63,893 nucleotides of DNA, filler included, from Asterionella formosa (GCA_002256025.1; 24 parts of 24 records of this genome joined end to end with filler, not necessarily neighbours in it), one strand, 5' to 3'; shown: positions 6,822 to 62,233, counted from the first letter of the whole stretch. The notes: generated by a model from the letters alone, not told the origin. Made by a program: numbers and translations.

Positions 6822-7018
6822 TTCATAAGCTAGAAATTGCATAAGTTATCGTATACCTGATTGCTCAAGAACATCTGGTACAGATTTTGCTGCATGGGTC
6901 GAAAAGCTCCACACCTGAGATTGAAGTATTGCACTGCTCAGCCATGCAAGTTATGTAGAGTGTAGTAAGCAGTCTGAAAGTATGTTGTTCAAAATTTGTA
7001 CGACAGAACTGCTATTAG

Positions 7019-23212: not shown

Positions 23213-23230
23213 ATTACATACCCTGGTGCC

Positions 23231-25469: not shown

Positions 25470-26093
25470 ATGATGCTTCGTCTTCTCCTTGTTGCACTCC
25501 TTTCCGTTGGTGCAGTCGCACAATGTGAGATTTGTGTTTATGGTGGGCTTCCAACAAATTTAAACGCTTTGCTTCCCGATGGTATTTACTGTGGGTTTTA
25601 CATTGATAACGCTCCTACAGGTCAAAGTTGCGCCTTGATTCGGCAACCTGCCAATCAAATTTTGTGCGGATGCCCACGAGGACCATCTACAAAGGCGCCT
25701 ACCCGCAAACCAACAACCAGAGCTCCTGCCGGAAGTTCGCCTACCCGCAAACCCACCACCAGGACTCCTACTCGTAAACCCACCACCAGGACTCCTACTC
25801 GTAAACCCACATTCAGGACTCCTACTCGTAAACCCACCACCAGGACTCCTACTCGTAAACCCACCACCAGGACTCCTACTCGTAAGCCCACAACCAGGGC
25901 TCCTACCCGAAACGTCGGTTGTCAGATGTGTGTCAACGGTGGAACTCCATCTAAGCTTACAAACATTGTGGATCCTCCCAACGGTCTTCTTTGTTCCTAC
26001 TACTTTTTCAATCAAGCATTACTTTCATCTTCCACATGCGCTTACATTCGCTTGCCTATGAATCAAAAACAATGCGGATGTGCTGGCTTTTGA
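25470..26093 (+). CDS. Secreted protein: Cys domain, cationic (TRTPTRKPT)n linker, second Cys domain
   Basis: Signal peptide AVA-Q; CxxC..GG.P...C...C...CGC domain at both ends; 27-nt coding repeats. Confidence 0.85.
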   Translation: MMLRLLLVALLSVGAVAQCEICVYGGLPTNLNALLPDGIYCGFYIDNAPTGQSCALIRQPANQILCGCPRGPSTKAPTRKPTTRAPAGSSPTRKPTTRTPTRKPTTRTPTRKPTFRTPTRKPTTRTPTRKPTTRTPTRKPTTRAPTRNVGCQMCVNGGTPSKLTNIVDPPNGLLCSYYFFNQALLSSSTCAYIRLPMNQKQCGCAGF

Positions 26094-39061: not shown

Positions 39062-39751
39062 AAAGTACTGCTGACACATGAAGATGCCGTTGTGAGACTG
39101 CCTACTGCAGACGAAGCCACCTTGTTTGCAACCATGATCAATCAGAAATACCCACTTATAACAAATTGTTGGGGAGCAATGGATGGTCTGAAACTGACCC
39201 TGCAACGGGCTGGAAATGAAACACAGCAGAACAACTTCTACAATGGATGGACCCATGAACACTATGTGACAAACTTGTTTCTTTTTTCGCCTGATGGAAA
39301 AATTCGCTGCTCATATTTCAATGCACCTGGTGTTCTACATGACTCCACCATGGCAATTTGGTCATCGATCTATGATCAGATTGAAACAGTTTACAGGGAT
39401 ACAGGCAAAAAAGTAGTTGTGGATTCAGCATTTGCATCTAAGAAATCAAATGCAATGTTGAAATCGCATCAAAACAATGTTGATGCAAATGGTAATCCTC
39501 GACAAAGATTTGGTATGAATCGCCAAGCCACCTCCATCCGACAGCTGTCGGAATGGGGAATGCGATGCCTTCAGGGATCATTTCCGAGAATCAAAGACAA
39601 ATTTCGTTATGAAGAAAAAGGTGAGAGAAAATTAATTCTCCAAATGATTGTATTGCTCTACAACTTTCGTGCTAGCAAAGTTGGTCAGAACCAAATTGCT
39701 TCAGTGTATATGCCCTATTTGCATAGGAATGCAAATAGATATGCCATGTAA
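39062..39751 (+). mobile_element. Harbinger DDE transposase, C-terminal part
   Basis: CWGAMDGLKL, FYNGWTHEH, NAPGVLHDS, VVVDSAF, TSIRQLSEWGMRCLQGSFPR. Confidence 0.92.
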
Positions 39752-39828: not shown

Positions 39829-40625
39829 TTATTCATCATCACTACTACTGCTACCACTGTTGTTTTTTGGTGTTTGACATTGAGTTGAGGCAGACAAAGT
39901 TTGTTGTGCATTGGCACCTGCTGTCGAGGTTGGATTTTGGCTTTGCATTGTTTGCTGCATTGAAATCATGTTTGAAGCAATAATTGAATTCATAATTGCC
40001 TGAGTGGGATTGGCACTGTCAGTGGAGGTGGTTGTTTGAGATACCCCATGCTGATTCAACAATGATGCCATGATTGACATCATCATCATGTTCATCATGT
40101 TCTGTTGCTGCAGTTGTTGCTGCTGTTGTTGTTGCTGCTGCAGGTTATCAGTATCAGTTCGAGTAGCCTTGTGAAGCAACTGTGTCGAAAGAAGAGAAAG
40201 CACTTTTTCAACAGGCCCAGTATTGTTTGACACTGCCTTATCTCTAAATCGAGGGGACACCATAGGTCGAGGAAATCTTGAACCAGAAAAATTAGCATAA
40301 GCGGCAGATGTTGCTCCACCATTGTCTTCACTCTCCCCACCAGAAATCGCTATAAAATCATCATCAACATTTGGCTCATCAATATTGGGCTCATTGGGCT
40401 CTCTCTCTATTCCAAGATCATTGGAATCAATCTCAGCACTTGCATCTGCTCGTTGCTCGATTCCTCGAAAAATTTGTTTGGCATATCTCACCTCAGCAGG
40501 GCATGTTGGGTCCCCAGTTGGTTTCTTAACTTTGTGCAGTTGTGAAAACTTTCGGCGAAGTGAAGGTCCTGTCCGTTCTTTGTCTGGGAAATTCTCGTTG
40601 TGCTGTGATGCAACAACTTCCCATT
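39829..40625 (-). mobile_element. Harbinger accessory ORF (Myb/trihelix-like domain with Q/M-rich tail), convergent with the transposase, 5'-truncated
   Basis: WEVVASQHNENFPDKERTGPSLRRKFSQLHKVKKPTGDPTCPAEVRYAK followed by a low-complexity tail. Confidence 0.75.
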
Positions 40626-42388: not shown

Positions 42389-43951
42389 CGACATGCATTG
42401 GCACAAATTGGAGATATCTTCTTTACAAAGTATAAGATTTTTCCAACCATGGATCTGTATTCACTATGTAGAACAGTGTGGGCATCATTCTTGGACAAAC
42501 TTGTACCTGGCAATCCGGGAGTTGGTGCAATTGCGGGATAAAGTCCAAAGAGATTCTTATAGTCTTCAAACATTCCTTCAAAGAAATCCTCCATAGTAGA
42601 TTCAAGAAATCTTCCATCAGCATCCTCTCCCCAGTCATACCAAACTCCTAAATGTTTCTTGATTGGTCCGAGTTCCTTTATGGTGAAATGCTTCTTGGCT
42701 TAAGCCTTAAGCCAGTCAACATCGGCTTGTTCTCCTGCAACAATGCAGTCATCAACATAGATACAAACAATTAGAAGCAATTTCAAATCACGTTTCAAGA
42801 AGAAAATGCATGGATCCACTTTGCTCTGTTTCATTCCAATGAGAATCAGACGCTCCACAAGTTTCTTGTACCACTGTCGCGCAGCCTGCACCGTTCCATA
42901 CATGGCTTTACTTAGAAGAATACAATTTTCTGAGACAACCTTGTTGTCTCAAAGCCAAACTCAACAACGCCTTCAGGCCATTCAAGGTAGATGTCTTCCT
43001 CTAAATCTCCTTCAAGAAAGGATGCTTCGACGTCAATGACCTCCTCAAAGTCCATGTCTTCTTGTGCATGGTGATTGCAAAGACAACTCTGATACTTGTA
43101 TCCATAGCCACAGGTGCAAACGAGTCGGTAAAATCAACACCGGGGATTTGAACATATCCCTTGATGACCACACGTGCCTTATAGCGTGTAGTCAAGTCTT
43201 GTTCCTTCTTTTTCTTGAAGACCCATTGACTCCCAAGCGGCTTGCGTCCATGCAATTCTGATCTTGGGAATTTTGACCAGAATTTTCGTTTTATAAAATT
43301 ATTAATTTCACTTTTGATTGCTGGAATCCATATTTCTCTGTCATCTGCTTTCAGTGCCGCACTGTAGGTCTTGGGTTCACCTGGATCTGATGCAAGTGTA
43401 GAGCTGTAGATGTAATGAACCTCCATGGATGAAGTAGGCTTAGAATCCAGATCATCATCATCATCTACAATAGTATGCAATCTTCCAGAACGTAGTGTAA
43501 ACATCGTTGGAGCAGTTTCATGACCAAGTTTCTTGAGCTCTCGTTCAGCTCTTGTAATAGCAGGTTTTGAAGTATTTGAAGCTTCATTCCTCCCTGCTTC
43601 AGAGACCTGCAAGTCATTAAGAGTCGAAAGTGATCCAGTCTCATCATCTGGGATGACAGTCGGAGTTGGTGCAACAGGTTGGTCAAGTTCCTCCTCAAAC
43701 TCAATTTCATTAATCCCAGTCTTGAACATGGTCAGATCATTAGTAGGTTTCGTTTCTCCATGCCATTCAATCCATTTTACATCACGGCTCTGAATCACCT
43801 TCTTGGTTATAGGGTTAAAGAGTCGGTAGGTATCACCTGGGTGGTTTTCAGAGTATCCAATCATGACACATTTAATTGCTTTATCATCAAGCTTATTCAC
43901 AGGAGTTCTTATGGTGACATATCCAGTTTGTCCAAATTGGATCAAGTGTTC
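42389..43951 (-). mobile_element. Copia pol fragment (integrase end + RT), disrupted copy
   Basis: YKARVVIKG, YGTVQAARQW, YVDD; two frameshifts and a GAA>TAA stop relative to the other copies. Confidence 0.95.
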
Positions 43952-44051: not shown

Positions 44052-44656
44052 AGTTAACACAGTCACCAATTTACCAGAAATTTCACATATCAATAATAAG
44101 ACATCAGAATATATTGCGATGAAATTTAAAAAATGATTGGTTGGACGGATATCTCCATCCAGAAGGTTGTATACATGACAATGGAGGTCAATTTACTGGT
44201 ATTCCTTTCATACACATTAAAAGCCTATGTACAAGTCATGTTAAAGGCTCATCCTCCAATCAAGGAATTTCAAGTTCAGAATATTGTGGATACCAGTTTG
44301 CTGCATCATATGCAGCTCGAGCTACTATTTATAGTACATTGTGTATTTTCACCAGGAACATGGGTTTTACAACATGATTTGATTATAGATATGTAATTGA
44401 TATTGGGATATCAATGTTGATAAGTGATAATTGACAAATGACTACGTCGTGATACTTTCCGTCGTCGTTCTTGCGATTACAAGGTTGTTGATGAGGTTTT
44501 AATCCTATCGGATAATCCTACTACCTTGGATAACCATGGACGAGGTCCTTATTCTATTTATTCAAGTATATGCCAATGGTCCAGTTACTTTTCAACAAAC
44601 TATGCATACTACGGACTGAATTAATATCCATTACATCAAACCTTTTCAAAGGTAAA
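44052..44656 (+). pseudogene. Decayed Gypsy integrase 3' end
   Basis: VTNLPEI, CIHDNGGQFTG, SPG, GPY and INIHYIKPF in broken frames, directly before a PPT and LTR. Confidence 0.75.
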
Positions 44657-44680
44657 AGGTTTTCCCTTGGTGTGGGAGAG

Positions 44681-44877
44681 TGAGCGATCTTGCGCATCAA
44701 TACAGATGTATATAGGGTTAGTGTTATATCATGTATGTATAAGAACTCAATAATGAGAGAACTCGACTAACCCTCATTGTATACTTTGGTGTCGACTTGG
44801 AGAACGAGTTACACACAAGGATTAACAAATAAGCTCATATATTCAACAAATACTACTACTTCTAGTTAGATACTTCA
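44681..44877 (+). mobile_element. Gypsy 3' LTR (197 bp)
   Basis: PPT GGGAGAG then TGAG...TTCA; near-identical to 59446-59642; followed by CCAGG. Confidence 0.88.
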
Positions 44878-45715
44878 CCAGGTACCAGGTACCAACCAGG
44901 GTACTCAACCTAGTATTTAGTTAAATAGATAGTGTCCTTACAAGCTTTTGTCAACACATTATTCGCTCGATTGGTTTAGGTAGCCGTACGGAATTCAAAA
45001 TTCTCCAACCGTTATACATCATATGCATATTATAACGACGGTCGAAGAAGAAAAACAGCAACCAAGGCGGCCGGCGATGTAACAGGCAAGCACATTCATG
45101 CAGTATATACAACCCAGCCTCATGATAACCAAACAAACCCGTGCACCAAATCTGTATCACATGTAATCTCATATTTTACATAAATGAATGCCATATACCG
45201 GTATATATTTCATAGAAAGTGACGAGACATCATCACGGAAAGCATTCTCGAAGCAAGCGGAAATGGTCAATGGATTCATAATGACTTCAGAACGAGGAAG
45301 ATGCCACTTTTATCAGTAAATTGCCTTTGTTCTCCTCGTTGGATTGACACTAGATTACAATCTCAACGACAGCAGAGCTTATCAACTAATGACATCGATA
45401 CAAAATAAAGCGGGTCCCAAGATTCTACTGGTCCAAGCAAAGGCCGATGAAGAAGTCGTGGTGACATCCTTGATTAATAGAACTTCTGCCGAGGAAAATG
45501 CCATCCCAGTGAACAATCAATCCTTGTCCATTGAGGAAATGGCAACACTGTTACCCAAACCACAAACATCGGTCGGCAACTGTGTCCCGCTTCTGACATC
45601 ACAAGGAGGTTGGGTNNNNNNNNNNNNNNNNNNNNNNNNNNNNNNNNNNNNNNNNNNNNTTAATTAATTAANNNNNNNNNNNNNNNNNNNNNNNNNNNNN
45701 NNNNNNNNNNNNNNN

Positions 45716-47280
45716 GAACACTTGATCCAATTTGGACGAATTGGATATGTCACCATAAGAACTCCTGTGAATAAGCTTGATGATAAAGCAATTAAATGTG
45801 TCATGATTGGATACTCTGAAAACCACTCAGGTGATACCTACCGACTCTTTAACCCTATAACCAAGAAGGTGATTCAGAGCCGTGATGTAAAATGGATTGA
45901 ATGGCATGGAGAAACGAAACCTACTAATGATCTGACCATGTTCAAGACTGGGATTGATGAAATTGAGTTTGAGGAGGAACTTGACCAACCTGTTGCACCA
46001 ACTCCGACTGTCATCCCAGATGATGAGACTGGATCACTTTCGACTCTTAATGACTTGCAGGTCTCTGAAGCAGGGAGTAATGAAGCTTCAAATACTTCAA
46101 AACCTGCTATTACAAGAGCTGAACGAGAGCTCAAGAAACTTGGTCATGAAACTGCTCCAACGATGTCTACACTACGTTCTGGAAGATATCATAACATTGT
46201 AGATGATGATGATGATCATCTGGATTCTAAGCCTATTTCATCCATGGAGGCTCATTACATCTACAGCTCTACGCTTGCATCAGATCCAGGTGAACCCAAG
46301 ACCTACAGTGCGGCACTGAAAGCAGATGACAGAGAAAAATGGATTCCAGCAATCAAAAGTGAAATTAATAATTTTATAAAACGAAAATTCTGGTCAAAAT
46401 TCCCAAGATCAGAATTGCATGGACGCAAGCCGCTTGGGAGTCGATGGGTCTTCAAGAAAAAGAAGGAACAAGACTTGACTACACGCTATAAGGCACGTGT
46501 GGTCGTCAAGGGATATATTCAAATCCCCGGTGTTGATTTTACCGACTCGTTTGCACCTGTGGCTACGGATACAAGTATCAGAGTTGTCTTTGCAATCACC
46601 ATGCACAAAAAGACATGGACTTTGGAGGTCATTGACGTCGAAGCATCCTTTCTTGAAGGAGACTTAGAGGAAGACATCTACCTTGAATGGCCTGAAGGCG
46701 TTGTTGAGTTTGGCTTTGAAGACAACAAGGTTGTCTCAGAAAATTGTATTCTTCTAAGTAAAGCCATGTATGGAACGGTGCAGGCTGCGCGACAGTGGTA
46801 CAAGAAACTTGTGGAGCGTCTGATTCTCATTGGAATGAAACAGAGCAAAGTGGATCCATGCATTTTCTTCTTGAAACGTGATTTGAAATTGGTTCTAATT
46901 GTTTGTATCTATGTTGATGACTGCATTGTTTCAGGAGAACAAGCCGATGTTGACTGGCTTAAGGCTGAATCCAAGAAGCATTTCACCATAAAGGAACTCG
47001 GACCAATCAAGAAACATTTAGGAGTTTGGTATGACTGGGGCGAGGATGCTGATGGAAGATTTCTTGAATCTACTATGGAGGATTTCGTTGAAGGAATGTT
47101 TGAAGACTATAAGAATCTCTTTGGACGTTATCCCGCAATTGCACCAACTCCCGGATTGCCAGGTACAAGTTTGTCCAAGAATGATGCCCACACTGTTCTA
47201 CATAGTGAATACAGATCCATGGTTGGAAAAATCTTATACTTTGTAAAGAAGATATCTCCAATTTGTGCCAATGCATGTCG
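45716..47280 (+). mobile_element. Copia pol fragment (RT), open frame
   Basis: RVT_2-type motifs WVFKKK, YKARVV, DVEASFL, YVDD. Confidence 0.95.
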
Positions 47281-47380
47281 NNNNNNNNNNNNNNNNNNNN
47301 NNNNNNNNNNNNNNNNNNNNNNNNTTAATTAATTAANNNNNNNNNNNNNNNNNNNNNNNNNNNNNNNNNNNNNNNNNNNN

Positions 47381-48942
47381 GAACACTTGATCCAATTTGG
47401 ACGAATTGGATATGTCACCATAAGAACTCCTGTGAATAAGCTTGATGATAAAGCAATTAAATGTGTCATGATTGGATACTCTGAAAACCACTCAGGTGAT
47501 ACCTACCGACTCTTTAACCCTATAACCAAGAAGGTGATTCAGAGCCGTGATGTAAAATGGATTGAATGGCATGGAGAAACGAAACCTACTGATGATCTGA
47601 CCATGTTCAAGACTGGGATTGATGAAATTGAGTTTGAGGAGGAACTTGACCAACCTGTTGCGCCAACTCTGACTGTCATCCCAGATGATGAGACTGGATC
47701 ACTTTCGACTCTTAATGACTTGCAGGTCTCTGAAGCAGGGAGGAATGAAGCTTCAAATACTTCAAAACCTGCTATTACAAGAGCTGAACGAGAGCTCAAG
47801 AAACTTGGTCATGAAACTGCTCCAACGATGTCTACACTACGTTCTGGAAGATTGCATACTATTGTAGATGACGATGATGATCTGGATTCTAAGCCTACTT
47901 CATCCATGGAGGTTCATTACATCTACAGCTCTACACTTGCATCAGATCCAGGTGAACCCAAGACCTACAGTGCGGCACTGAAAGCAGATGACAGAGAAAA
48001 ATGGATTCCAGCAATCAAAAGTGAAATTAATAATTTTATAAAACGAAAAGTCTGGTCAAAATTCCCAAGATCAGAATTGCATGGACGCAAGCCGCTTGGG
48101 AGTCGATGGGTCTTCAAGAAAAAGAAGGAACAAGACTTGACTACACGCTATAAGGCACGTGTGGTTGTCAAGGGATATGTTCAAATCCCCGGTGTTGATT
48201 TTACCGACTCGTTTGCACCCGTGGCTACGGATACAAGTATCAGAGTTGTCTTTGCAATCACCATGCACAAGAAGACATGGACTTTGGAGGTCATTGATGT
48301 CGAAGCATCCTTTCTTGAAGGAGACTTAGAGGAAGACATCTACCTTGAATGGCCTGAAGGCGTTGTTGAGTTTGGCTTTGAAGACAACAAGGTTGTCTCA
48401 GAAAATTGTATTCTTCTAAGTAAAGCCATGTATGGAACGGTGCAGGCTGCGCGACAGTGGTACAAGAAACTTGTGGAGCGTCTGATTCTCATTGGAATGA
48501 AACAGAGCAAAGTGGATCCATGCATTTTCTTCTTGAAACGTGATTTGAAATTGGTTCTAATTGTTTGTATCTATGTTGATGACTGCATTGTTGCAGGAGA
48601 ACAAGCCGATGTTGACTGGCTTAAGGCTGAAGCCAAGAAGCATTTCACCATAAAGGAACTCGGACCAATCAAGAAACATTTAGGAGTTTGGTATGACTGG
48701 GGAGAGGATGCTGATGGAAGATTTCTTGAATCTACTATGGAGGATTTCGTTGAAGGAATGTTTGAAGACTATAAGAATCTCTTTGGACGTTATCCCGCAA
48801 TTGCACCAACTCCCGGATTGCCAGGTACAAGTTTGTCCAAGAATGATGCCCACACTGTTCTACATAGTGAATACAGATCCATGGTTGGAAAAATCTTATA
48901 CTTTGTAAAGAAGATATCTCCAATTTGTGCCAATGCATGTCG
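47381..48942 (+). mobile_element. Copia pol fragment (RT), open frame
   Basis: Same motifs and endpoints as 45716-47280. Confidence 0.95.
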
Positions 48943-49042
48943 NNNNNNNNNNNNNNNNNNNNNNNNNNNNNNNNNNNNNNNNNNNNTTAATTAATTAANN
49001 NNNNNNNNNNNNNNNNNNNNNNNNNNNNNNNNNNNNNNNNNN

Positions 49043-50604
49043 GAACACTTGATCCAATTTGGACGAATTGGATATGTCACCATAAGAACTCCTGTGAATA
49101 AGCTTGATGATAAAGCAATTAAATGTGTCATGATTGGATACTCTGAAAACCACTCAGGTGATACCTACCGACTCTTTAACCCTATAACCAAGAAGGTGAT
49201 TCAGAGCCGTGATGTAAAATGGATTGAATGGCATGGAGAAACGAAACCTACTGATGATCTGACCATGTTCAAGACTGGGATTGATGAAATTGAGTTTGAG
49301 GAGGAACTTGACCAACCTGTTGCGCCAACTCTGACTGTCATCCCAGATGATGAGACTGGATCACTTTCGACTCTTAATGACTTGCAGGTCTCTGAAGCAG
49401 GGAGGAATGAAGCTTCAAATACTTCAAAACCTGCTATTACAAGAGCTGAACGAGAGCTCAAGAAACTTGGTCATGAAACTGCTCCAACGATGTCTACACT
49501 ACGTTCTGGAAGATTGCATACTATTGTAGATGACGATGATGATCTGGATTCTAAGCCTACTTCATCCATGGAGGTTCATTACATCTACAGCTCTACACTT
49601 GCATCAGATCCAGGTGAACCCAAGACCTACAGTGCGGCACTGAAAGCAGATGACAGAGAAAAATGGATTCCAGCAATCAAAAGTGAAATTAATAATTTTA
49701 TAAAACGAAAAGTCTGGTCAAAATTCCCAAGATCAGAATTGCATGGACGCAAGCCGCTTGGGAGTCGATGGGTCTTCAAGAAAAAGAAGGAACAAGACTT
49801 GACTACACGCTATAAGGCACGTGTGGTTGTCAAGGGATATGTTCAAATCCCCGGTGTTGATTTTACCGACTCGTTTGCACCTGTGGCTACAGATACAAGT
49901 ATCAGAGTTGTCTTTGCAATCACCATGCACAAGAAGACATGGACTTTGGAGGTCATTGACGTCGAAGCATCCTTTCTTGAAGGAGACTTAGAGGAAGACA
50001 TCTACCTTGAATGGCCTGAAGGCGTTGTTGAGTTTGGCTTTGAAGACAACAAGGTTGTCTCAGAAAATTGTATTCTTCTAAGTAAAGCCATGTACGGAAC
50101 GGTGCAGGCTGCGCGACAGTGGTACAAGAAACTTGTGGAGCGTCTGATTCTCATTGGAATGAAACAGAGCAAAGTGGATCCATGCATTTTCTTCTTGAAA
50201 CGTGATTTGAAATTGGTTCTAATTGTTTGTATCTATGTTGATGACTGCATTGTTGCAGGAGAACAAGCCGATGTTGACTGGCTTAAGGCTGAAGCCAAGA
50301 AGCATTTCACCATAAAGGAACTCGGACCAATCAAGAAACATTTAGGAGTTTGGTATGACTGGGGAGAGGATGCTGATGGAAGATTTCTTGAATCTACTAT
50401 GGAGGATTTCGTTGAAGGAATGTTTGAAGACTATAAGAATCTCTTTGGACGTTATCCCGCAATTGCACCAACTCCCGGATTGCCAGGTACAAGTTTGTCC
50501 AAGAATGTTGCCCACACTGTTCTACATAGTGAATACAGATCCATGGTTGGAAAAATCTTATACTTTGTAAAGAAGATATCTCCAATTTGTGCCAATGCAT
50601 GTCG
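49043..50604 (+). mobile_element. Copia pol fragment (RT), open frame
   Basis: Differs from 47381-48942 by a few SNPs. Confidence 0.95.
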
Positions 50605-50704
50605 NNNNNNNNNNNNNNNNNNNNNNNNNNNNNNNNNNNNNNNNNNNNTTAATTAATTAANNNNNNNNNNNNNNNNNNNNNNNNNNNNNNNNNNNNNNNN
50701 NNNN

Positions 50705-52266
50705 GAACACTTGATCCAATTTGGACGAATTGGATATGTCACCATAAGAACTCCTGTGAATAAGCTTGATGATAAAGCAATTAAATGTGTCATGATTGGA
50801 TACTCTGAAAACCACTCAGGTGATACCTACCGACTCTTTAACCCTATAACCAAGAAGGTGATTCAGAGCCGTGATGTAAAATGGATTGAATGGCATGGAG
50901 AAACGAAACCTAATAATGATCTGACCATGTTCAAGACTGGGATTGATGAAATTGAGTTTGAGGAGGAACTTGACCAACCTGCTGCACCAACTCCGACTGT
51001 CATCCCAGATGATGAGACTGGATCACTTTCGACTCTTAATGACTTGCAGGTCTCTGAAGCAGGGAGGAATGAAGCTTCAAATACTTCAAAACCTGCTATT
51101 ACGAGAGCTGAACGAGAGCTCAAGAAACTTGGTCATGAAACTGCTCCAACGATGTCTACACTACATTCTGGAAGATTGCATAATGTAGATGATGATGATG
51201 ATCTGGATTCTAAGCCTACTTCATCCATGGAGGTTCATTACATCTATAGCTCTACACTTGCATCAGATCCAGGTGAACCCAAGACCTACAGTGCGGCACT
51301 GAAAGCAGATGACAGAGAAAAATGGATTCCAGCAATCAAAAGTGAAATTAATAATTTTATAAAACGAAAAGTCTGGTCAAAATTCCCAAGATCAGAATTG
51401 CATGGACGCAAGCCGCTTGGGAGTCGATGGGTCTTCAAGAAAAAGAAGGAACAAGACTTGACTACACGCTATAAGGCACGTGTGGTCGTCAAGGGATAGT
51501 ATGTTCAAATCCCCGGTGTTGATTTTACCGACTCGTTTGCACCTGTGGCTACGGATACAAGTATCAGAGTTGTCTTTGCAATCACCATGCACAAGAAGAC
51601 ATGGACTTTGGAGGTCATTGACGTCGAAGCATCCTTTCTTGAAGGAGACTTAGAGGAAGACATCTACCTTGAATGGCCTGAAGGCGTTGTTGAGTTTGGC
51701 TTTGAAGACAACAAGGTTGTCTCAGAAAATTGTATTCTTCTAAGTAAAGCCATGTATGGAACGGTGCAGGCTGCGCGACAGTGGTACAAGAAACTTGTGG
51801 AGCGTCTGATTCTCATTGGAATGAAACAGAGCAAAGTGGATCCATGCATTTTCTTCTTGAAACGTGATTTGAAATTGGTTCTAATTGTTTGTATCTATGT
51901 TGATGACTGCATTGTTGCAGGAGAACAAGCCGATGTTGACTGGCTTAAGGCTGAAGCCAAGAAGCATTTCACCATAAAGGAACTCGGACCAATCAAGAAA
52001 CATTTAGGAGTTTGGTATGACTGGGGAGAGGATGCTGATGGAAGATTTCTTGAATCTACTATGGAGGATTTCGTTGAAGGAATGTTTGAAGACTATAAGA
52101 ATCTCTTTGGACGTTATCCCGCAATTGCACCAACTCCCGGATTGCCAGGTACAAGTTTGTCCAAGAATGATGCCCACACTGTTCTACATAGTGAATACAG
52201 ATCCATGGTTGGAAAAATCTTATACTTTGTAAAGAAGATATCTCCAATTTGTGCCAATGCATGTCG
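50705..52266 (+). mobile_element. Copia pol fragment (RT) with an in-frame stop
   Basis: A 3-nt insertion gives GGA-TAG-TAT at about 51494-51502. Confidence 0.95.
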
Positions 52267-52366
52267 NNNNNNNNNNNNNNNNNNNNNNNNNNNNNNNNNN
52301 NNNNNNNNNNTTAATTAATTAANNNNNNNNNNNNNNNNNNNNNNNNNNNNNNNNNNNNNNNNNNNN

Positions 52367-53270
52367 CTTCAACGATACAATGCAGTCTCTTGCTACAGAT
52401 ACTGAAGTCGATCGATTTGTTGACTCCCTCATACTTCCTGATGACTTTGTGCTTGATAGTGAAAGGACAAAGGTGATTTTCATCAAAGGTGTTGCAATGA
52501 AGCAGATCTCGGTCAAGGTTCTCCGAAAAATTTGCGTCAGATACAAAGTTTCTGGATACAAAAATGCGAAGAAGGCTTTCACTGTTGCTTTGATTGCTCG
52601 ACTTTTGAAGAGAGAAAGCTTGTCACAGAGGATATACCCTAGATCTTTCATTGTCAATGAATCAGACATTGAATTGGATAGTGATAATGATAATCACGAA
52701 GATTCATCAATTAATGATGAGGAATTCAAAGTCGATGAAGATTGCGAAGATGATAATGATGAAATGAACGAAAAAGTTCAAGAGGCAACAGCAGTGCAGC
52801 CACATGAGTCTTTGGTCGATCCTCAGTCTGAACAAGAGGAAGTGAACCCTCCTGTGAAAAAGGCAAAAAAGAATAAGGCACAGGCAAAGTCAACCCCTCC
52901 AGATGCTGTGACCTGCATAAACACATACTTCCGTGTCATTAATGTCTACATGTGCAACAAGCATCGCAGTGATGTTTTGCGTCTAGGTCAGCCACCAACT
53001 CTGGCTGAACTTGATGCAAGAAGATTTCGACACAAGTTCATTTTCGATCGACTTGTTGTCACATATAATGATGATGAGGATGACGACTGCATCATTCTAG
53101 CATTTCCCGAAGATGAATACTGGGACCAAGTTGGAATTGATGCTGAATACGCAAAAAAATATGATGTCCTCACTTCCAAAGACTTTTCATTGGTAATGGG
53201 ATACATTAATCATCATTATCAAGTTGCCTATCGAAAAAACAAACAATCAGGCAATCATGATGATTTTGTC
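52367..53270 (+). mobile_element. Harbinger accessory ORF, cut by an internal deletion
   Basis: Long acidic/basic ORF convergent with the transposase; after KQSGNHDDF it reads into antisense transposase sequence. Confidence 0.6.
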
Positions 53271-53928
53271 ACATCACTGCATCGTCCAGGAGCAATCACC
53301 CCAAAAAATATAAATCTACTCTCAACATCACAGATAGCCTGAACATTGATACCATAAGTCATGTAATGTCCAGAATAAAAAGCTCCTGGATTGTTTCCAC
53401 AGTCACGTAGCGTGGGGCGACTAATTGTGGCTAAAAAACCATCAATAGCACCAACACACCCTCTGATCAACCCTTCTGTGCTCTTTTGTTCAAAGGCTAT
53501 AGCCAATTTCACCAAATCACTCCTTGTTTTAGGAAATATAATTTTCAGATAATCACAGTTAAGCACGGCTTCAAGAAATAAATCTCGGCATCTATAGATT
53601 GAAGCTATGCTACATCCATAGGCATGACGAATGTCAATGTAGCTGCCTCCAGCCAACCATCGAATGCCAATGGCCAGCACAATTTCTGGGTAAATGGGAG
53701 TAGCTGTACCGCACTTGAAGAAATTTCCAATGACATCACTCTCCAGTAAGTAAACCAACTTCTTAAAGGCTCGAAGGGACATTCTATAAGTCTTTTCAAA
53801 TGCGTCCTCATGACACAGCTTCTTGACATGAGAATGCCATGACATTCTCTCATGCTCCCATTTCGCCTTCCTCTTTTTAACTTTCGTTTCAGCCTCCAGA
53901 GCCAGATGACAAAGGATAAAGAATTGAT
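53255..53928 (-). mobile_element. Harbinger transposase, C-terminally deleted
   Basis: Close paralog of 3-1007 (RWLAGGSYIDI, GCVGAIDG, YGINVQAICD); homology stops at PGRCSD. Confidence 0.9.
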
Positions 53929-54525
53929 NNNNNNNNNNNNNNNNNNNNNNNNNNNNNNNNNNNNNNNNNNNNTTAATTAATTAANNNNNNNNNNNNNNNN
54001 NNNNNNNNNNNNNNNNNNNNNNNNNNNNCATTAAAATATATTTTATATATTTCATATGTTCGCATTTTGGCAAGACAACAGACACCAATTGCCCCTCGGT
54101 TTTCCAGCCCTGGGATTGCCGAAATCGGCAAGGGGTCTACTTAAGGAAACCATTTTATATACTATTCAGATTCTAATAATTTATATCTAGAATTCACCTC
54201 GTTTTTGTTCGTCTCCTGAAAAGTGGACTCCGGCAATTCACCTTTCACCATGCCAATCGTCGTCCATCATGACCGGTTTGAAGCGAAATCAGTTCCGCGA
54301 TGACGCCAGTAGCGATTCTTTGCCTAACAGATGCGGTTGATTGTTGGATTGCTTGTCTTCTCGAGGTATTCATGTAGTCGCATCGTCCATATTTCGTCGG
54401 ACGAACGATGATATCGATACATCTGATGTTGCTTGGTAGCAAGTTTTTGCTCCGGTCATGTATGTATGTAATGATGCTTAACGGATATTCTACCGGTACC
54501 GGCAGTCATCTAGTCAACATACGTA

Positions 54526-55590
54526 CGTGGTACTAAAAACAACCATGCATGGTTTCAGCTATGCTTTAACGCTTACTTTGAGCACGTTATAATATTATCT
54601 CTGTAGACTCGCTATTATTTTTACGAGACCTGAAATGTTGAAATATATCGTTCACATATTCATTGATTTTACGTACCGTATGCCCGATTTCGTCCTCAGA
54701 AATATAGCTAGTTCTCACTCTATCTTGCCTGCCTTTGCTCTATTTGGGCTTGCAATAGGCAACGTTCGTCTTTCTTTTATCCCATAGTCTGCTGCTTGTT
54801 ATGCTAGTTGAAGCGGATCGGTGAGTACAACAGTGAAATACTGAATGTGGATTGTAGATCGTATTTATCGACTTTCCGATTTGATTGCTTCCGTGGTTTG
54901 TTTTGATTGCTTCCATCGTTGTTTGTCGTTACGCACTGTCGTTTTGTTTCGATTGTACATATCTACATGAGAACCAATGCATTTATCAATGACTACTCAT
55001 TGAAGATGTGGTATTGTGCCGTTGTTGATCGTATTTGTTGATTTGTATAGTCGTTGACAATGATGTCAATATTGCCGCCACGCAATGCATTTCTTGTACT
55101 AACGCGCTTTGCTACAATTCTACTACGAGCTCGTATCAGAAGCTACATGAATACTCAGCTAGAGAGAGTCAATAGTTCTGGAGCAGCGTGGCGATCACGC
55201 TTGCTTGCTCAGAATGGAATGATCAGGGTTGCTTGTTTGGTGGGCAGCGGAGAGGAATGACTGTGGCGGAAATACTGCTACTGGTGTCAGGCCACTACAG
55301 CGATGCGCATGGTTGCAGAAACCAGAACATTTACGCTACATAACGATGTAGGTCAAGATTGGGTTCAGCTTTTCCCTTCTTATTTCGGTCTTCGATTGTG
55401 TGGTGATGGAAAGTCAATGTTGCCTGGTGTGTAAGTACTACTACAATGATTCACAATGCATACGTCTCCATTGGAACTCTTATTTTTTATTTCATTTCTA
55501 ACCCAAAACAATTTTTTCTATTTCTCATTTGATGCTACTTATTACACCGCATTTCATACTTTGGTTGCTCCAAACATCATGTTCAATTTT
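54526..55590 (-). repeat. Diverged copy of the 1437-bp unit with a unique flank
   Basis: Reverse complement of about 36470-35734 continuing into 37170-36860; homology ends at ...TAGTACCACG. Confidence 0.85.
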
Positions 55591-56539
55591 NNNNNNNNNN
55601 NNNNNNNNNNNNNNNNNNNNNNNNNNNNNNNNNNTTAATTAATTAANNNNNNNNNNNNNNNNNNNNNNNNNNNNNNNNNNNNNNNNNNNNGGTGTGCTTG
55701 TCAGCAGCTTGAAACGCAGCAAAGCTACATAACGTTGGCAGTAATGATAATTGCAACCCAGAGTTTTGATGGTTACAAGAATGTGTCAGATCGTTGGGAT
55801 ACATAGACACAACACAATACCTCGATAAGGGCAATTTCGAGATACTTGTGCCAGCTCCTTTTTCAGTGACAGGATATTTGCAGATAAACGGAACAATCTT
55901 TCAAAAAAGGCTGAAGCGACCGGCGATCCTTCCAGTTTCGTCACTTCTCTCCTGGGATACTCTCAAAAATCATCTTGTCTTACCTTCGACGAGGAGCGAT
56001 GCGCGTACGAGCAGCGAGAGCTAAATTGTTTCGGCAAACAGCAAACATCATGGTGTGGAGGGAAAATTTGTAATTGCAGATGAGCTGAGGGTCTACAGGT
56101 ATAGCATATCTACACTACAGGTATAATATTATATTATATACATGCAACAAATCCTTGCTTCCGCCCACCAACCTTTTTGCTCACTTCTGCTCTCCCCCGA
56201 CGACGACCGTCCAAGTTTTGTCGGCATTTCTTCTTGCGCACAGCCATTCTGCCTACAAATGATACGTGCGTGGTGTGTCCCAGTATGTTACATCTTCTGT
56301 TGTTGCAATTTATTTTTAAAGCACCAGGTACCTAGGTGCTGTTTCTGAATACTACCGGTATTGTATATATAAATACTGCTGCAAGAATACTTCCAATTTT
56401 GAAGAAAAAAATCATATTTTATAGAACTTACAGCAACAGCACGGTATATACAGGTAAGGTATACTGCTATTTTTCTCCGTGTCATGTAAATTGCTGTATT
56501 TACGAGTGACGTCGTGGTATTTTCGTTTTGGCTTCTTAC

Positions 56540-56705
56540 TGTTAATATCTGCATATATGCTCCATACATGCGCCGTACGAACCATACCGGCGCAGCCACC
56601 AGATTAGGTACATGCGTGAGTCCTAACAACGATGTACTTGGAACAGCAATAGAATAGTCATAATATTGTAGTTCACCTTTATTCACGATAAGGTTCCCCT
56701 CAACA
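56540..56705 (+). mobile_element. Copia LTR (166 bp), second Copia family
   Basis: TGTTAATA...CCTCAACA; reverse complement of 58197-58363. Confidence 0.88.
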
Positions 56706-57251
56706 GAACTACAACATATAAAGCATTACATCAACGTTTGTGCAAAGCTGGCCTACGTCCCAAACTTCAACGCCTTGACAATGAGTGTTCTACACTCCTC
56801 AAAGAATTCTTGGACAAAGAAGCTATTGACTTTCAGTTGGTCCCGCCGGCTGTCCATCGTTGCAATGCCGCTGAACGTGCAATTCGCACCTTTCAAAATC
56901 ATTTCATTGCCAGTCTATGCAGTGTCGACAAACACTTTCCTCTCCATTTGTGGGACCAACTATAAGTTCAAGCTGAACTTACTCTTAACCTCCTCCGTGG
57001 CTCACGCATCAACCCCAAACTGTCTGCTTGGGCACAGGTCAATGGAACCTATGATTACAACCGTGTCCCCCTTGCTCCACCTAGCTGTTGGGTCCTTGTT
57101 CATGCCAAGCCCCAACACCGCACCACATGGGCTCCGCATGCTCTCGATGGTTGGTATGTCGGCCCTGCTGTGGATTCCTATCGCTGCTACCGCATCTGGA
57201 TGTGGGACACACATTCAATCAGAATCTGCGATACTGTCTCGTGGTTTCCAA
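56706..57251 (+). mobile_element. Copia integrase core, frameshifted
   Basis: PKLQRLDNECS, QLVPPAVHRCNAAERAIRTFQNHF, FPLHLWDQL, then QAELTLNLLR...GWYVGPAVDSYRCY. Confidence 0.9.
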
Positions 57252-57351
57252 NNNNNNNNNNNNNNNNNNNNNNNNNNNNNNNNNNNNNNNNNNNNTTAAT
57301 TAATTAANNNNNNNNNNNNNNNNNNNNNNNNNNNNNNNNNNNNNNNNNNNN

Positions 57352-57803
57352 GAGCTGTGGGAGTGGGAGGAAGGGCCGGAAAGGGCAGACCAGGCAGAGG
57401 CATGGTCAGAAAGGTGTAGATAGGATGCCGGGGAAGCCGAAGGCAGAGCCCGGGGTGAAATATGGGGTGGTGGGTAGGGACTCATAGAATACGGGGCTGA
57501 ATAGCGAAGAGGAGGCGCAGACGTGCGGGGGTCCATAGCGAACTCGGATGATGAGGGCGGGACAAAATGCGGAAGTTGAGCATTAGTGGAGAACTGGTGA
57601 TGGCAGGTAGGGTTAGGGTTCTGGTTAGGGTTCTGGTTAGGGTTCTGGTTAGGGTTAGGGTTAGGGTTAAGCGGTGCCACCAAAAGTTCACCATGGGGAT
57701 GGGGAAATAATGCACCAGCATTGTGTTGTTGCCATGCAGCCAATTCGCCACTGAATGCAGCTGCATCAGTGTCATTGGCATCATGAGGCGATGGAGATCG
57801 CAT
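57352..57803 (-). CDS. Pro/Ser-rich ORF start with an NP/NPNQ repeat; function unknown
   Basis: Open for about 150 codons to the contig end; the repeat reads TTAGGG on the + strand. Confidence 0.35.
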
Positions 57804-58196
57804 GATGGAGGGAAGTCTGGTAAGGGATCAGTAACCTGTGTGTGTTGAGAGGGAGAAACGCTTGCAACGGATGCCAGCGGCAGCTACATTAACAAGGAAC
57901 TGAGATTCTAAAGTAGTATTTAACTAGCTGTAGAGGGACCAGTACTCACGGGAATTAAGCACTTACAGGAATCTTGGTAGGATATACGGAGTAACCGGTA
58001 TATGGTACCAACAATATGCATTACGCTATTTATAGAGTAATAGGTGCAGTACCAGTACCAGGTACCTGGTACTACCAATGCTACCACCAGCTACCTGGTA
58101 ACTGGTACCGGTACCTGGTGTAGTGCTTACGTATTAACGGTACTGGGGAGACAAGCATCCAAGTGCCGGTTGTGACGATACTGACTCAGAACAAAA

Positions 58197-58363
58197 TGTT
58201 GAGGGGAACCTTATCGTGAATAAAGGTGAACTACAATATTATGACTATTCTATTGCTGTTCCAAGTACATCGTTGTCAGCACTCACGCATGTACCTAATC
58301 TGGTGGCTGCGCCGGTATGGTTCGTACGGCGCATGTATGGAGCATCATATGCAGATATTAACA
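58197..58363 (-). mobile_element. Copia 3' LTR (167 bp)
   Basis: Follows PPT-like GGTGAGGGTG at the end of RNase H; TG...CA ends. Confidence 0.88.
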
Positions 58364-58912
58364 CACCCTCACCAACAGATGCAGGCAGGAGAACAGGAGC
58401 GGGGAGGGAGATGCTATCAGCATCGGAAGCCAAGCACGCATAATAGTTAGGAGGACTAGGGAGGGATGGAGGGCAATGGAGGTAGTGCGGGCGCATCAAC
58501 ATATGATGGGAAGCGGGATGATGTTTAGTGAAATAATCAGCACGATTCAAACTACCTTTTTTCCAGTATACAAGAAATTGGCCTTGGCGAACCCGATCGC
58601 GTACCCAGTAATAACGCATATCCATAGCTTTGGAACGTTTTTGTCGGACAGTATCATTGGCGATGCCACTGGCAGTGCTATTATCGGTGACAATACGGGT
58701 AGAAGGTTGGGGATGACCAAGCTCAGCAAGAATGGTGCGAATAGCATATGCCTCTTTGCCATTGTGGAATAAAGCAGCTAATTCGGCCTCAGCAGCACTT
58801 GATACAACCTCCTTAAGAATTTGACAGTGGACGTAAATAGCACCGTTAAGAGGAGGGATGGATGTAGTGAGGCTAGGTGGAGACACGGGTTTACAGCTGA
58901 GAAAGTGAATGC
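58364..58912 (-). mobile_element. Copia RNase H domain
   Basis: VSSAAEAELAALF, IVTDNSTA, KRSKAMDMRYYW, NRADYFTKHH. Confidence 0.93.
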
Positions 58913-59012
58913 NNNNNNNNNNNNNNNNNNNNNNNNNNNNNNNNNNNNNNNNNNNNTTAATTAATTAANNNNNNNNNNNNNNNNNNNNNNNNNNNNNNNN
59001 NNNNNNNNNNNN

Positions 59013-59642
59013 ATATTGGACCGAAATCTTCAGCATCAACATCCATTTCTACTTTCTCAATTGAAGTAGATGATGAACCTTTGTTTACCTGTTCCCTCAA
59101 TCATCCAATTTTGGCAGACAATATTCAATATCCTCTGGAATATTACTCAATACATGATAGACAATTGCTGGATATACAATTGATTCTCAATCAAACAACT
59201 CATCTCATTCTCAATCAACAAACCAAACACATCTGTTAAATTTTCCCTCTATCAATTTTCATCATATACATTTCATGTATTTTGTAAAGAATCCAGGAGA
59301 TACTTGACGTATTGTTATTCCTACATCACTATCGAATCCTATGGTACAGTTACTTTTCAACAAACTATGCATACAACGGAACGAATTAATATCCATTACA
59401 TCAAACCTTTTCAAAGGTAAAAGGTTTTCCCTTGGTGTGGGAGAGTGAGCGATCTTGCGCATCAATACAGATGTATATAGGGTTAGTGTTATATCATATA
59501 TGTATCAGAACTCAATAATGAGAGAACTCGACTAACCCTCATTGTATACTTTGGTGTCGACTTGGAGAACGAGTTACACACAAGGATTAACAAATAAGCT
59601 CATATATTCAACAAATACTACTACTTCTAGTTAGATACTTCA
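59013..59642 (+). mobile_element. Internally deleted Gypsy remnant + PPT + 3' LTR (59446-59642)
   Basis: Same TERINIHYIKPFQR end, PPT and LTR as 44600-44877; followed by CCAGG. Confidence 0.85.
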
Positions 59643-59649
59643 CCAGGTA

Positions 59650-59976
59650 CCCCTGGTAGAATTTCTTGGACAATACCATGGCATACTGCAGGGTTCCATC
59701 GGTCCGTTGGTAGAATATTCTACCAAAATGTGAAAAAAAAATTCTACCCCCAGTACTACTGGGTAGAATTTTTGCCTGTCTCTATACCATATTTTCACCA
59801 CGGTCAAGCAAGGGAGGGGTACCGGACAGTACTGACCTGTCCAGAGTAGAACACTACAGGAGCCCTACAGAAAAATATTACTTTGGTAGAATTTCGTCAA
59901 TAATGTCAAGGTACCATCATGTCCCGAGTAGGACAATACCAGGGGTCTTGGGTTGAATTTTAAGTGGTACCAGGGG
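59650..59976. repeat. MITE-like segment with GGTAGAATT motifs in both orientations
   Basis: CCCCTGGTA...TACCAGGGG ends; repeated GGTAGAATT/ATTCTACC and GGACAATACCA. Confidence 0.4.
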
Positions 59977-60673
59977 AGTACCAGGTAACAACTGGTACCG
60001 GTAGTACCTGGTACCTGCAGTGGGATGAAAGAGTGATGTAGAAGCACCAGTACTTGTGGACTACAGTTGCAGGAACCCCTAGCTCGAGGGAGAGTACCGG
60101 TATCAGGTACCAGGTACCTTGGTAGTCAACGCATGTTGGTACACTTCATACGAGTAAAACATACATGTTTACTGCACGTAACACGAGCTCAATGAGAGGA
60201 CAGGATCCAACAGCACAGAGGGCAAGCTAAACTACTGGTATTTTTGGTTGTGAAAAAAGTGATCGTTAGTTACATACCAAGATATGTAATTGTATGTTAT
60301 AGTTCTCCACAACAAACAATGGCCAAATGGATGCCCATGCGACATAATAGCAGGTCAGTGTCTATTTTACACAAATAACTGGCAATCATGAGTTCGGTCT
60401 CAATATGTGATTCCAAGAGATTTAAAAAATTGCTTTCCATCACCGAAGGGTGTGGTTTGCTTTGTGTCCAAGAAAACGTTACATGTACAATACAACAACT
60501 ATTACTATATACAATTTGATCAAGTAAGGATGCTAGTTCAATTTACACGACATGTTGTACACTGCACACCAATNNNNNNNNNNNNNNNNNNNNNNNNNNN
60601 NNNNNNNNNNNNNNNNNTTAATTAATTAANNNNNNNNNNNNNNNNNNNNNNNNNNNNNNNNNNNNNNNNNNNN

Positions 60674-60772
60674 TCGCTGTTCAAAGTCTTCGGCAGGAGA
60701 AGATGGAGGAGATCCATCGTCCATGTCTTCTTCATTCGTCTCGGCAGGCGACAAAGCCCGATGATCCATCAT
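60674..60772 (-). CDS. Probable 5' end of a host gene
   Basis: MMDHRALSPAETNEEDMDDGSPPSSPAEDFEQR, open to the contig end, with a CAAC-rich start context. Confidence 0.35.
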
Positions 60773-61229
60773 GTTGTTAGAGTGTTGCTGTTGGCTGCGA
60801 TACTCTGTCGGAGTATTTCGTAAGGACAACGCGATGATATTGTTATCAAAAAAATCTGTTTGTTTTCGTACGGATGCTGATATTCGAATCAAAGGATGTT
60901 TGTTTAGGAGCCAAGTCTATGATGGAACAAAATCAAGACTTTATGAAAATACGGAAGATGGCGGAAATGGCGGAAAGGAGGATTTAGCACTTGTTGTTCG
61001 TTCCTCAATTCGGCGAGAATGACAAGGAAATGCATCCAGCTACCGGGGAGTTCCGTGTAAGTCCGAATATGGCGAATATTTGTCCGTAAATATTTTATCA
61101 AACCAGCCATACGTGAGCAAACCTTAAAAATGGCTTACCGTTATGTTCATTATGTAGCAGTACGGCGTAGTTGTACCGGTAGGTAACTTTTGTTCAAATT
61201 GTGTACATACCATCATACTGGGTACCAGG

Positions 61230-61424
61230 TGAGCAATCCTGCACATCGATACAGATGTATTTAGGGTTAGGGTTATATCAAATATATCGGAATTGTATAA
61301 TGAGAGAACTCGACTAACACCCATTCTATACTTTGATGTCAGTTCAGGAAATGAGTTGTACATAAGGATTAATTAATAAACTCATATATTCAACAAATAC
61401 TACTACTTCTAGTTAGATACTTCA
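61230..61424 (+). mobile_element. Gypsy 5' LTR (related subfamily)
   Basis: TGAGCAATC...GATACTTCA, homologous to the two 3' LTRs; preceded by GGTACCAGG. Confidence 0.85.
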
Positions 61425-61463
61425 CTTTGAATTCAAAAAGAGTCGAATTAGAAGACAACAAAC

Positions 61464-62233
61464 ATGGCAATGTATTCAAGGGTTCCTGTGATTCCTTTGA
61501 TCAAAGACTACAATGTATTGACTATCAAAACTAAAACGTTCAGAGTTGCTTTAACCGGTGGAAGGTTTGAATCGTTTGATCAAGATATGATCGATGGAAG
61601 CTCAGTGGAAGCATTGTTAATTGGAGTTAGTCAATTTCGTGATATGGCTAACACATGTGACTTTAGCCCTGCAGATACCTTTTCCTATTTTAAAAGGTGT
61701 TTGACAGACATTGCCTTATCGGATTGGTTGAATGTGGAAGTACACCCAGAAGATCAATCTTACGATAGTTTCGAAGAAGCGATGGCTTTATGGTTAGACG
61801 ATCGTTTGCCAAATGAGAGTTTTCAACATCAACGACAATGGATGCTACGTTATTTATCTAAACCCTTTTCCATGTTGGTAATGGATTACGGAGCTCGTAT
61901 TAAAACTTTAAACAGGCTACTTCAACTAATGCCTCATCCAGAAGATCAAGTTGGATTGTCAAAAGAAGATATACGGATTATCATTATCCGTTCTATGCCC
62001 GATGAGTGGCAACAAGAGTTTGAATTAAATCATGCAAAGACTTCAGACCAATCGATTCGCTCGGTTCTCGCTTACTTCGAGAGTCAACAATCGTTTAAGG
62101 ATCGAAACAAGCATCTTCCCAAGAACAGTTTTCAAACAATCACACAGAACCGTCTTCGCATTGCTGAAGGCAATCGTGTGATGCATCAAGAAAACGAGCG
62201 TGTCAGACGTCAATTCTACAAGGATAATTTTAC
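61464..62233 (+). mobile_element. Gypsy gag, 3'-truncated
   Basis: ORF starts 39 nt after the LTR; FKRCL...W, LSKPFSM, RIKTLNRLLQLMP and SMPDEWQQEF capsid-like motifs. Confidence 0.8.

Follow-up and report, generated by a model that had tools for sequence, protein, structure and literature searches.

An abundant retrotransposon family in a 63,893-nucleotide stretch of DNA from Asterionella formosa (GCA_002256025.1), here called the window, probably has a preferred integration target, the palindrome (GG)TA-CCWGG-TA(CC), which it enters in a fixed phase and whose central CCWGG it would duplicate. The family is assigned by sequence to the Ty3/gypsy superfamily of long terminal repeat (LTR) retrotransposons. 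That it has a target preference at insertion is very likely: as expected of a sequence-specific LTR element, the same short sequence, within one base, lies at the insertion point in 8/8 loci whose host junctions were read letter by letter. The window is a series of 24 contigs, one of 25.6 kb (contig 6, 8325-33969) and 23 of ~1.56 kb, separated by spacers of the form N..TTAATTAATTAA..N; the element lies on contigs 13 (44052-45615), 22 (59013-60573) and 23 (60674-62233). An ABC1-kinase open reading frame (ORF) in the 25.6-kb contig has its named relatives, at ~60-80% identity, in Mayamaea, Seminavis, Fistulifera, Cylindrotheca, Skeletonema and Thalassiosira, all of them diatoms, and the host is therefore a diatom.

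A BLAST search of the window with positions 44681-44877 returned exactly three LTR copies including the query, direct repeats of 195-197 bp with TG..CA ends (TGAGC..CTTCA). Both 3' LTRs, on contigs 13 and 22, are directly preceded by a short purine run, GGGAGAG, the end of a polypurine tract (PPT). At the 5' LTR on contig 23, CTTTGAATTCAAAAAG is followed downstream by a putative gag ORF. A metagenome collection scanned with the last 24 nt of the LTR yielded 17 loci, of which five have a host junction, nine are contigs running from the PPT through the LTR into the leader, and three are cut inside the LTR with an unreadable 5' side. The nine contigs of the second kind are the assembler's collapse of the two LTRs of an element. 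In these, the LTR is bounded by ..GGGAGAG/TGAGC and CTTCA/CTTTGAATTC (a slash marks the LTR edge), and CCAGG therefore lies outside the LTR; the case named in an earlier note on this DNA as speaking against its own reading, an LTR that includes CCAGG, was not encountered. The position counting was confirmed in Logan contigs of four runs aligned to 44560-45000, where 99 contigs, among the matches listed, leave the LTR at 44878 into the leader TTTGAATTCAAAAAGAGTC.

The letters at the host junctions were read directly. The LTR passes into host DNA as ..CTTCA/CCAGGTACCAGGTACC on contig 13 (44877/44878; also written CA/CCAGGTACCAGG) and as ..CTTCA/CCAGGTACCCCTGG on contig 22 (59642/59643; also written CA/CCAGGTACCCCT), and host DNA enters the LTR as GGGTACCAGG/TGAGC on contig 23 (61229/61230). 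CCAGG stands immediately outside the LTR at all three junctions, as the earlier note had read them, and its view that these are separate loci holds as well, the two 3' flanks having 9 nt in common and then differing (the alignment stops at 44886/59651). Together with the five metagenome junctions there are eight distinct loci, with flanks that are unlike beyond the motif. CCWGG is exact at six of the eight, three of these from the metagenome, and one base off at the remaining two; copies with unrelated flanks, which the earlier note had also named as evidence against itself, were not found. Taken as half-sites and counted outwards from the LTR, 8/8 loci have G at -1 and -2, W at -3, C at -5 and A at -6; T at -7 is found at 7/8, and G at -8 and at -9 at 6/8 each. 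CCWGG occupies 129 positions in the 61,859 non-N bases of the window; against this background, the binomial tail for six exact junctions in eight is 2.3e-15. Were an element already within a GGTACCW array of 7-bp period, the correct phase would still arise by chance in ~1/7 of junctions.

A larger sample of junctions came from the aligned Logan contigs. The runs containing contig 13 carry the labels algae, freshwater, riverine or lake metagenome, plus one coded organism. In run X1, 25,706 contigs align to 44560-45000, and the depth summed over the LTR reaches 3-6 million against 895 in the unique flank; though this does not give the number of copies, the family is evidently very abundant. Host flanks of 5' LTRs appear in this run as loose contig ends before 44680, carried by 55 X1 contigs among the matches listed. 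The consensus of these flanks reads ACGTAACAGGTACCCGGTACCAGGTACCTG and then, in the aligned part, G and TGAGC (also written ..GGTACCCGGTACCAGGTACCTG+G/TGAGC). It is made up of three phased GGTACC units with CCTGG next to the LTR (median length 15, agreement 0.51) and matches the junctions read singly. At the 3' side, many other copies align on through 44894 in the flank of contig 13; 29 X1 and 11 X3 contigs among the matches listed run through CCAGGTACCAGGTACCA before diverging, and the X1 consensus goes on with GGTACC. The depth in the bin 44890-44904 exceeds that of the unique flank in X1 (75,521 vs 895), X3 (132.7 vs 9.49) and X2 (20.2 vs 4.3). Two joints from 44894 to 44680 among the matches listed, with inserts 'G' (depth 141) or 'GGGACCAG' (depth 27), are consistent with, and do not prove, two LTRs in one array separated by 19 nt (CCAGGTACCAGGTACCAGG) or a 26-nt variant of CCAGGTA repeat, each LTR abutting CCAGG. 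No empty allele of the contig 13 locus was visible among the matches listed, and X3 has a flank variant. The footprint CCWGGCCWGG, which exact loss of the element at TG..CA would leave, has 0 occurrences in the window and was set aside.

The target is itself a repeat of this genome. The window has 14 occurrences of GGTACCWGGTACC, where 100 dinucleotide-preserving shuffles give 0.00, and 76 of GGTACC, where base composition predicts ~10; the motif builds short arrays with a period of 7 bp. Ten long ORFs cover 52% of the 25.6-kb contig but contain five of its 44 GGTACC, the other 39 being outside them (P = 1.8e-8). The five are found where two ORF pieces of a single gene overlap, presumably an intron, or in the first residues of stop-to-stop frames. 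The earlier note's description of the target as an abundant non-coding repeat is thus borne out. None of the 13-mers of this contig is occupied by the element (0/10). CCWGG half-sites in the whole window are preceded by TA in 41% and by GGTA in 25% of cases; at the six exact junctions TA precedes in 6/6 and GGTA in 4/6, which supports a recognised core of at least TACCWGGTA. The possibility that the element's own duplications produced the arrays was ruled out, since a 5-bp duplication cannot yield a 7-bp period. A literature search for the 13-mer GGTACCAGGTACC found no mention of it.

The coding region places the element among its relatives. Locus L002, of the same subfamily as the LTR at 61230, has an intact C-terminal ORF that ends in ..GPYTIIQVHANGTVTFQRTMYITERINIRRIKPFHR and a stop codon. 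A search with this ORF returned 68 longer proteins. One of these, P0001, is a 489-residue integrase at 98% identity that represents 189 member sequences; other relatives are diatom polyproteins with RVT_1, RNase H, H2C2 and rve domains, those named coming from Nitzschia inconspicua, Amphora coffeaeformis and Chaetoceros tenuissimus. The relative P0022 has the order protease, reverse transcriptase, RNase H, H2C2 and integrase core, which is that of Ty3/gypsy. P0001 contains the end of RNase H followed by H2C2, the core and the C-terminal domain; the element's own reverse transcriptase is not seen in the window. The integrase C-terminus lies ~50 bp before the 3' LTR, and integrase is last in the Pol order. 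By these sequence relationships the element is classed as Ty3/gypsy of a diatom type, in line with the gypsy family given in the earlier note. Its LTR ends are TG..CA rather than the non-TG/CA ends of errantiviruses, and its named relatives are all diatom elements. P0001 has no relative in the viral_contigs collection, and the LTR tail has no match in the viral_contigs or genome_contigs collections.

No additional targeting module was found in the integrase, including its C-terminus, where the earlier note had proposed to look for one. Pol stops 3 residues after ..ERINIRRIKPF in L002, i.e. at the GPY/F module, and there is no chromodomain (PF00385), the mark of chromoviruses, in P0001, in P0022 or among the precomputed domains of the 68 relatives. 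The AlphaFold model of P0001 has a mean predicted local distance difference test score of 76 and is confident at residues 100-210, 231-380 and 437-487; the first ~95 residues are of low confidence and belong to the RNase H-integrase linker. The modelled parts are a small N-terminal extension domain (NED), a zinc-binding N-terminal domain (NTD), a catalytic core domain (CCD), a long helix and an SH3-like C-terminal domain (CTD), giving the arrangement NED-NTD-CCD-CTD. The best fold matches are the integrase of the prototype foamy virus (PFV) intasome (E = 1e-17, ~390 columns) and Ty3 integrase 7q5b, with 384-433 alignment columns overall. As modelled, the integrase appears canonical, with no domain added for targeting at the C-terminus or elsewhere.

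The two 3' ends in the window come from defective copies. In contig 13, the frames of 44052-44680 contain 'HDNGGQFTG' and a GPY/F-like 'GPYSI..ERINIHYIKPF', with stops and frameshifts that are common to metagenome copies. In contig 22, the ORF 'IGPKSSASTSISTFSIEVDDEPLF..' corresponds to P0001 residues ~64-130, and likeness to contig 13 begins only at 59338. All copies seen of the subfamily to which the LTR at 44681 belongs (L001, L004, L005, L006, L009, L013) share their in-frame stops and paired frameshifts in the region coding for the integrase C-terminus, the stops standing where the intact protein has Q, Q and R/E. Among the metagenome loci this subfamily is the most frequent, and its LTRs are ~99% alike; it appears to be a non-autonomous lineage that the intact subfamily (L002/P0001) mobilises in trans.

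A symmetric intasome that attacks the two strands 5 bp apart, centred on the W of GGTA-CCWGG-TACC, would account for these junctions. Staggered strand transfer would duplicate CCWGG and leave every LTR abutting CCWGG, so that a symmetric 5-bp attack around W would explain the palindrome, the fixed phase and the presence of CCWGG on both sides of the element. We infer a 5-bp target-site duplication (TSD) of CCWGG, with which the finding of CCWGG on the 5' and 3' sides of different copies fits. The two half-sites would be read by the two-fold symmetric intasome itself, as reported for the integrase of ZAM, which according to the available portion of that study binds its CGCGCg target directly (PMC2527525). 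Direct recognition of the target by integrase is ranked as the most likely mechanism, with a somewhat better than even chance, because ZAM integrase itself binds its target and because a palindromic geometry is shared with retroviruses, Tos17 and errantiviruses. A more far-reaching version, to which we give a little less than even weight, is that a canonical four-domain integrase has an intrinsic, restriction-enzyme-like read-out of a 9-13-bp palindrome, and that the element and the abundant GGTACC arrays, taken to be promoter-proximal, have shaped each other, the arrays serving as landing pads in the compact genome of the host.

Several points weigh against this account. The reading of the earlier note that insertion appears specific to the palindrome is supported as a strong, base-precise flank preference that is not absolute: two of the eight junctions are off consensus by one base, reading CAAGG and, inside a Copia reverse transcriptase gene, CTTGG. 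One base at each LTR end is ambiguous, the G before TG and the C after CA being common to internal and host contexts; if these are assigned to the LTR, the duplication becomes a 3-bp CAG and not CCAGG, with the same empty site, GGTACCAGGTACC. The sample held no copy with both flanks on one contig, and the TSD length is taken from different copies. The outer GG/CC of the 13-mer may be genomic context and not part of the recognition. The letter-by-letter junctions number eight, and the larger sample is a consensus of limited agreement (0.51) whose loose-end counts come from the matches listed, with 358 further loose-end rows beyond these. X1 is probably the source sample of the window, yet it shows other loci. 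An estimate of what fraction of the copies is located in the motif was dropped, the bins mixing LTR and flank and the depths being summed over contigs.

Among other explanations, tethering fares best, although we consider it unlikely. Here a host DNA-binding protein, plausibly a homodimer, would sit on the GGTACC arrays, and the intasome would dock on it as Ty3 does on TFIIIB, which would fix the phase. The arrays are abundant, non-coding and often 5' of ORFs, as protein-binding sites would be, the integrase has no unusual domain, and tethering is given as the basis of targeting for murine leukaemia virus, human immunodeficiency virus, Ty1, Ty3 and Ty5 in the available text of a 2017 review (PMC5408687). 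No candidate factor was identified, however, the invariant positions lie within or adjoin the duplicated pentamer, and the off-array insertion L003 keeps ACYWGG, which fits read-out at the cut site better. An improbable explanation is DNA shape, by which bent, kinked or cruciform arrays of the self-complementary GGTACC would be favoured by any retroviral-type intasome with no read-out of bases. The target is indeed a perfect palindrome in arrays, and the parts of two sources available to us name integrase multimerisation and the deformability of DNA as the origin of the weak palindromic consensus that is general in retroviruses and in plant LTR elements (PMC5408687; PMC6911290). Against this, 6/8 junctions occupy a single one of the 7 possible phases, and the two off-consensus junctions, L015 and the off-array L003, still have near-consensus bases. 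No Copia LTR junction, which would serve as a control for attraction to the arrays, lies inside the window. Least probable is that there is no real preference and that the pattern reflects a mis-set LTR boundary, assembly chimeras at a low-complexity repeat, one duplicated locus or the survival of array insertions, for although few junctions were read directly, from short contigs with collapsed repeats (9/17 metagenome loci being PPT-LTR-leader contigs), PPT and leader fix the boundaries independently, no k-mer is common to the LTR ends and the repeat, making chimeric joins unlikely, the eight flanks differ beyond the motif and come from several assemblies and runs, and selection gives a regional bias and not a single-base phase.

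Table 1. Retrotransposon copies, their host flanks and unoccupied target sites (window coordinates)
Feature	Position	Strand	Description
Ten empty GGTACCWGGTACC sites, 25.6-kb contig (9480-33704)	9480, 9636, 17046, 26574, 26761, 31127, 32554, 32604, 33562, 33692		potential targets
3' internal end, degenerate copy (contig 13)	44052-44680	+	decayed integrase C-terminal coding region; GGGAGAG abuts LTR
3' LTR, 197 bp	44681-44877	+	TG..CA; the BLAST query itself, contig 13
Host flank	44878-44900	+	CCAGG 44878-44882, putative right TSD copy; then TACC-A-GGTACC, GGTACCWGGTACC array, 13-mer 44881-44893
Internally deleted copy (contig 22)	59013-59445	+	region upstream of the integrase zinc finger joined to last ~108 bp of internal region
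3' LTR, 197 bp	59446-59642	+	99.0% identical to 44681-44877
Host flank CCAGGTACC	59643-59651	+	CCAGG 59643-59647, putative TSD copy
Host flank GGTACCAGG	61221-61229	+	CCAGG 61225-61229, putative left TSD copy
5' LTR of second subfamily, 195 bp	61230-61424	+	84.4% identical to 44681-44877; final ~45 nt identical to other LTRs
Leader	61425-61463	+	at expected primer-binding-site position; perfect 12-nt palindrome TTTGAATTCAAA, without TGG; conserved in all subfamilies
Putative gag ORF	61464-62233	+	ATG 61464, open to contig end; no Pfam match
Metagenome 5' flank, L014			GGTACCAGG/
Metagenome 5' flank, L010			GTTACCTGG/
Metagenome 5' flank, L015			GGTACAAGG/
Metagenome 5' flank, L003			TCAACTTGG/
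Metagenome 3' flank, L017			/CCAGGTACT; LTR of this subfamily alignable over last ~45 nt only

The end of the LTR and the leader are the most constant parts of the element. Subfamilies whose LTRs are otherwise 84% identical or, in L017, unalignable agree fully over the final ~45 nt of the LTR, and the leader is near-invariant over all metagenome loci, L012 having one base changed within the palindrome (TTTGAAATCAAA). With regard to the primer-binding site, a transfer RNA search of the window found none and an Rfam search matched no family. A stem between U5 and the leader was considered and rejected, the predicted fold being no better than that of shuffled sequences (z = -1.09; 29/200 shuffles fold equally well).

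Further observations concern the arrays and their surroundings. Between 8900 and 33700 the arrays lie between ORFs, often 5' of both divergent partners, as at 19775/20109 between an FKBP ORF (-) and the ORF at 20292 (+); judged by this placement, they may be promoter-proximal elements. In the insertion flank of contig 22 (59650-59900), at least 4 copies of a TGGTAGAAT-like word were seen by eye among GGTAC-like words. Positions 20287-21628 and 23208-24527 form a tandem duplication at 96% identity with two ~300-residue ORFs that have no Pfam family, and near it are repeats of 27-bp period with CCAGG at 25759-25894 spaced 27 or 54 bp.

The window holds several other repeats and mobile elements. 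Locus L003 is a gypsy 5' LTR nested in Copia reverse-transcriptase coding sequence, at the off-consensus site listed in Table 1. Contigs 12 and 14-17 (42389-43951, 45716-52266) are 97.9-99.7% identical over the same Ty1/copia stretch (SH3_retrovirus and RVT_2), one with an internal stop, and are copies or haplotypes of one Copia family. Fragments of DDE_Tnp_4 (PIF/Harbinger-type) transposase occur on three small contigs (3-1010, 39062-39748 and 53258-53926), one of them adjoining a DUF6818 ORF at 39832-40623. Contigs 4 and 5 (4997-8224) are alleles or recent duplicates: they are 97.8% identical over their full length, and in each a 401-residue open frame weakly matches BTB. The first 127 bp of contig 8 (35734-37297) recur exactly at its end as a direct repeat (bases 1-127 and 1438-1564), as expected of a circular molecule or of a tandem unit 1,437 bp long; contig 19 (54029-55590) is ~93% similar to it in permuted order. 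Both have short ORFs only and no Rfam match.

Retroviral-type integrases are commonly described as selecting their targets through tethering factors or with weak palindromic biases, and sequence specificity of the degree seen here is rare in this class of element. The nearest precedent is offered by the ZAM, gypsy and Idefix subgroups of Drosophila errantiviruses, likewise of the Ty3/gypsy superfamily, which are specific for the short palindromes CGCG, TATA and ATAT in the parts of the sources available (PMC2527525; PMC5408687). In the same partial text, the 2017 review holds sequence-specific integration to be exclusive to errantiviruses and their two-ORF derivatives, describes their targets as palindromes of 4-6 bp, and notes that ZAM-subgroup elements prefer GC-rich repeats (PMC5408687). 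The present element differs in its diatom host and diatom relatives, in its ordinary TG..CA LTR ends, whereas the consulted portion of the review ties specificity to the distinctive LTR ends of errantiviruses, and in its inferred 5-bp duplication and conserved target of 9-13 bp as opposed to 4-6 bp (PMC5408687). Tos17, a Ty1/copia element of rice, also has a palindromic consensus around a 5-bp TSD (ANGTT-TSD-AACNT), which is ascribed to integrase multimerisation (as cited in the available part of PMC6911290). Tos17, however, is a Copia element with a degenerate consensus and a TSD that is not fixed, whereas the present gypsy element has CCWGG as the pentamer itself and, as its target, a repeat that is abundant in the genome. 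The superfamily's prototype, Ty3 of Saccharomyces cerevisiae, integrates with positional precision and has a related integrase fold (7q5b is among the top fold matches); what positions it is not a DNA motif but TFIIIB at RNA polymerase III start sites.

The diatom LTR retrotransposons described so far include GyDi1/GyDi2 and CoDi, and the element's nearest named protein relatives come from Nitzschia, Amphora and Chaetoceros. A 2009 survey of diatom LTR elements records heterogeneous target duplications and, in the text available, reports no sequence preference (PMC2806351); the accessible portions of the diatom transposable element literature searched, including a 2025 preprint, do not mention a target preference. 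Multicopy repeats are likewise the landing sites of repeat-specific non-LTR retrotransposons, which in the excerpts available insert into microsatellites, ribosomal DNA, small nuclear RNA genes or telomeres (PMC4640811; PMC3706591); those elements, by contrast, use an endonuclease and target-primed reverse transcription. A 2013 paper states, in the part available, that strict target specificity had until then been observed only in non-LTR retrotransposons (PMC3706591). What is new here is sequence-specific Ty3/gypsy integration in a remote lineage, by an element with TG..CA ends and an inferred 5-bp duplication, into a longer target that is an abundant repeat.

If true, intrinsic read-out of the palindrome would have no earlier example outside insect errantiviruses, and its motif would be the longest among such cases. 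Another case, so remote in phylogeny and with an ordinary-looking integrase and a longer and sharper target, would provide a comparative handle on how intasomes read target DNA, and the integrase would be a candidate scaffold for site-directed integration. The finding also draws attention to the GGTACCWGGTACC arrays as an abundant non-coding motif. In a compact genome whose intergenic DNA contains the motif, such a preference would keep new copies off coding sequence, much as the safe harbour suggested in the earlier note, although the motif often lies 5' of ORFs. A case of this kind would also show how so abundant an element can survive in a diatom genome that is compact.

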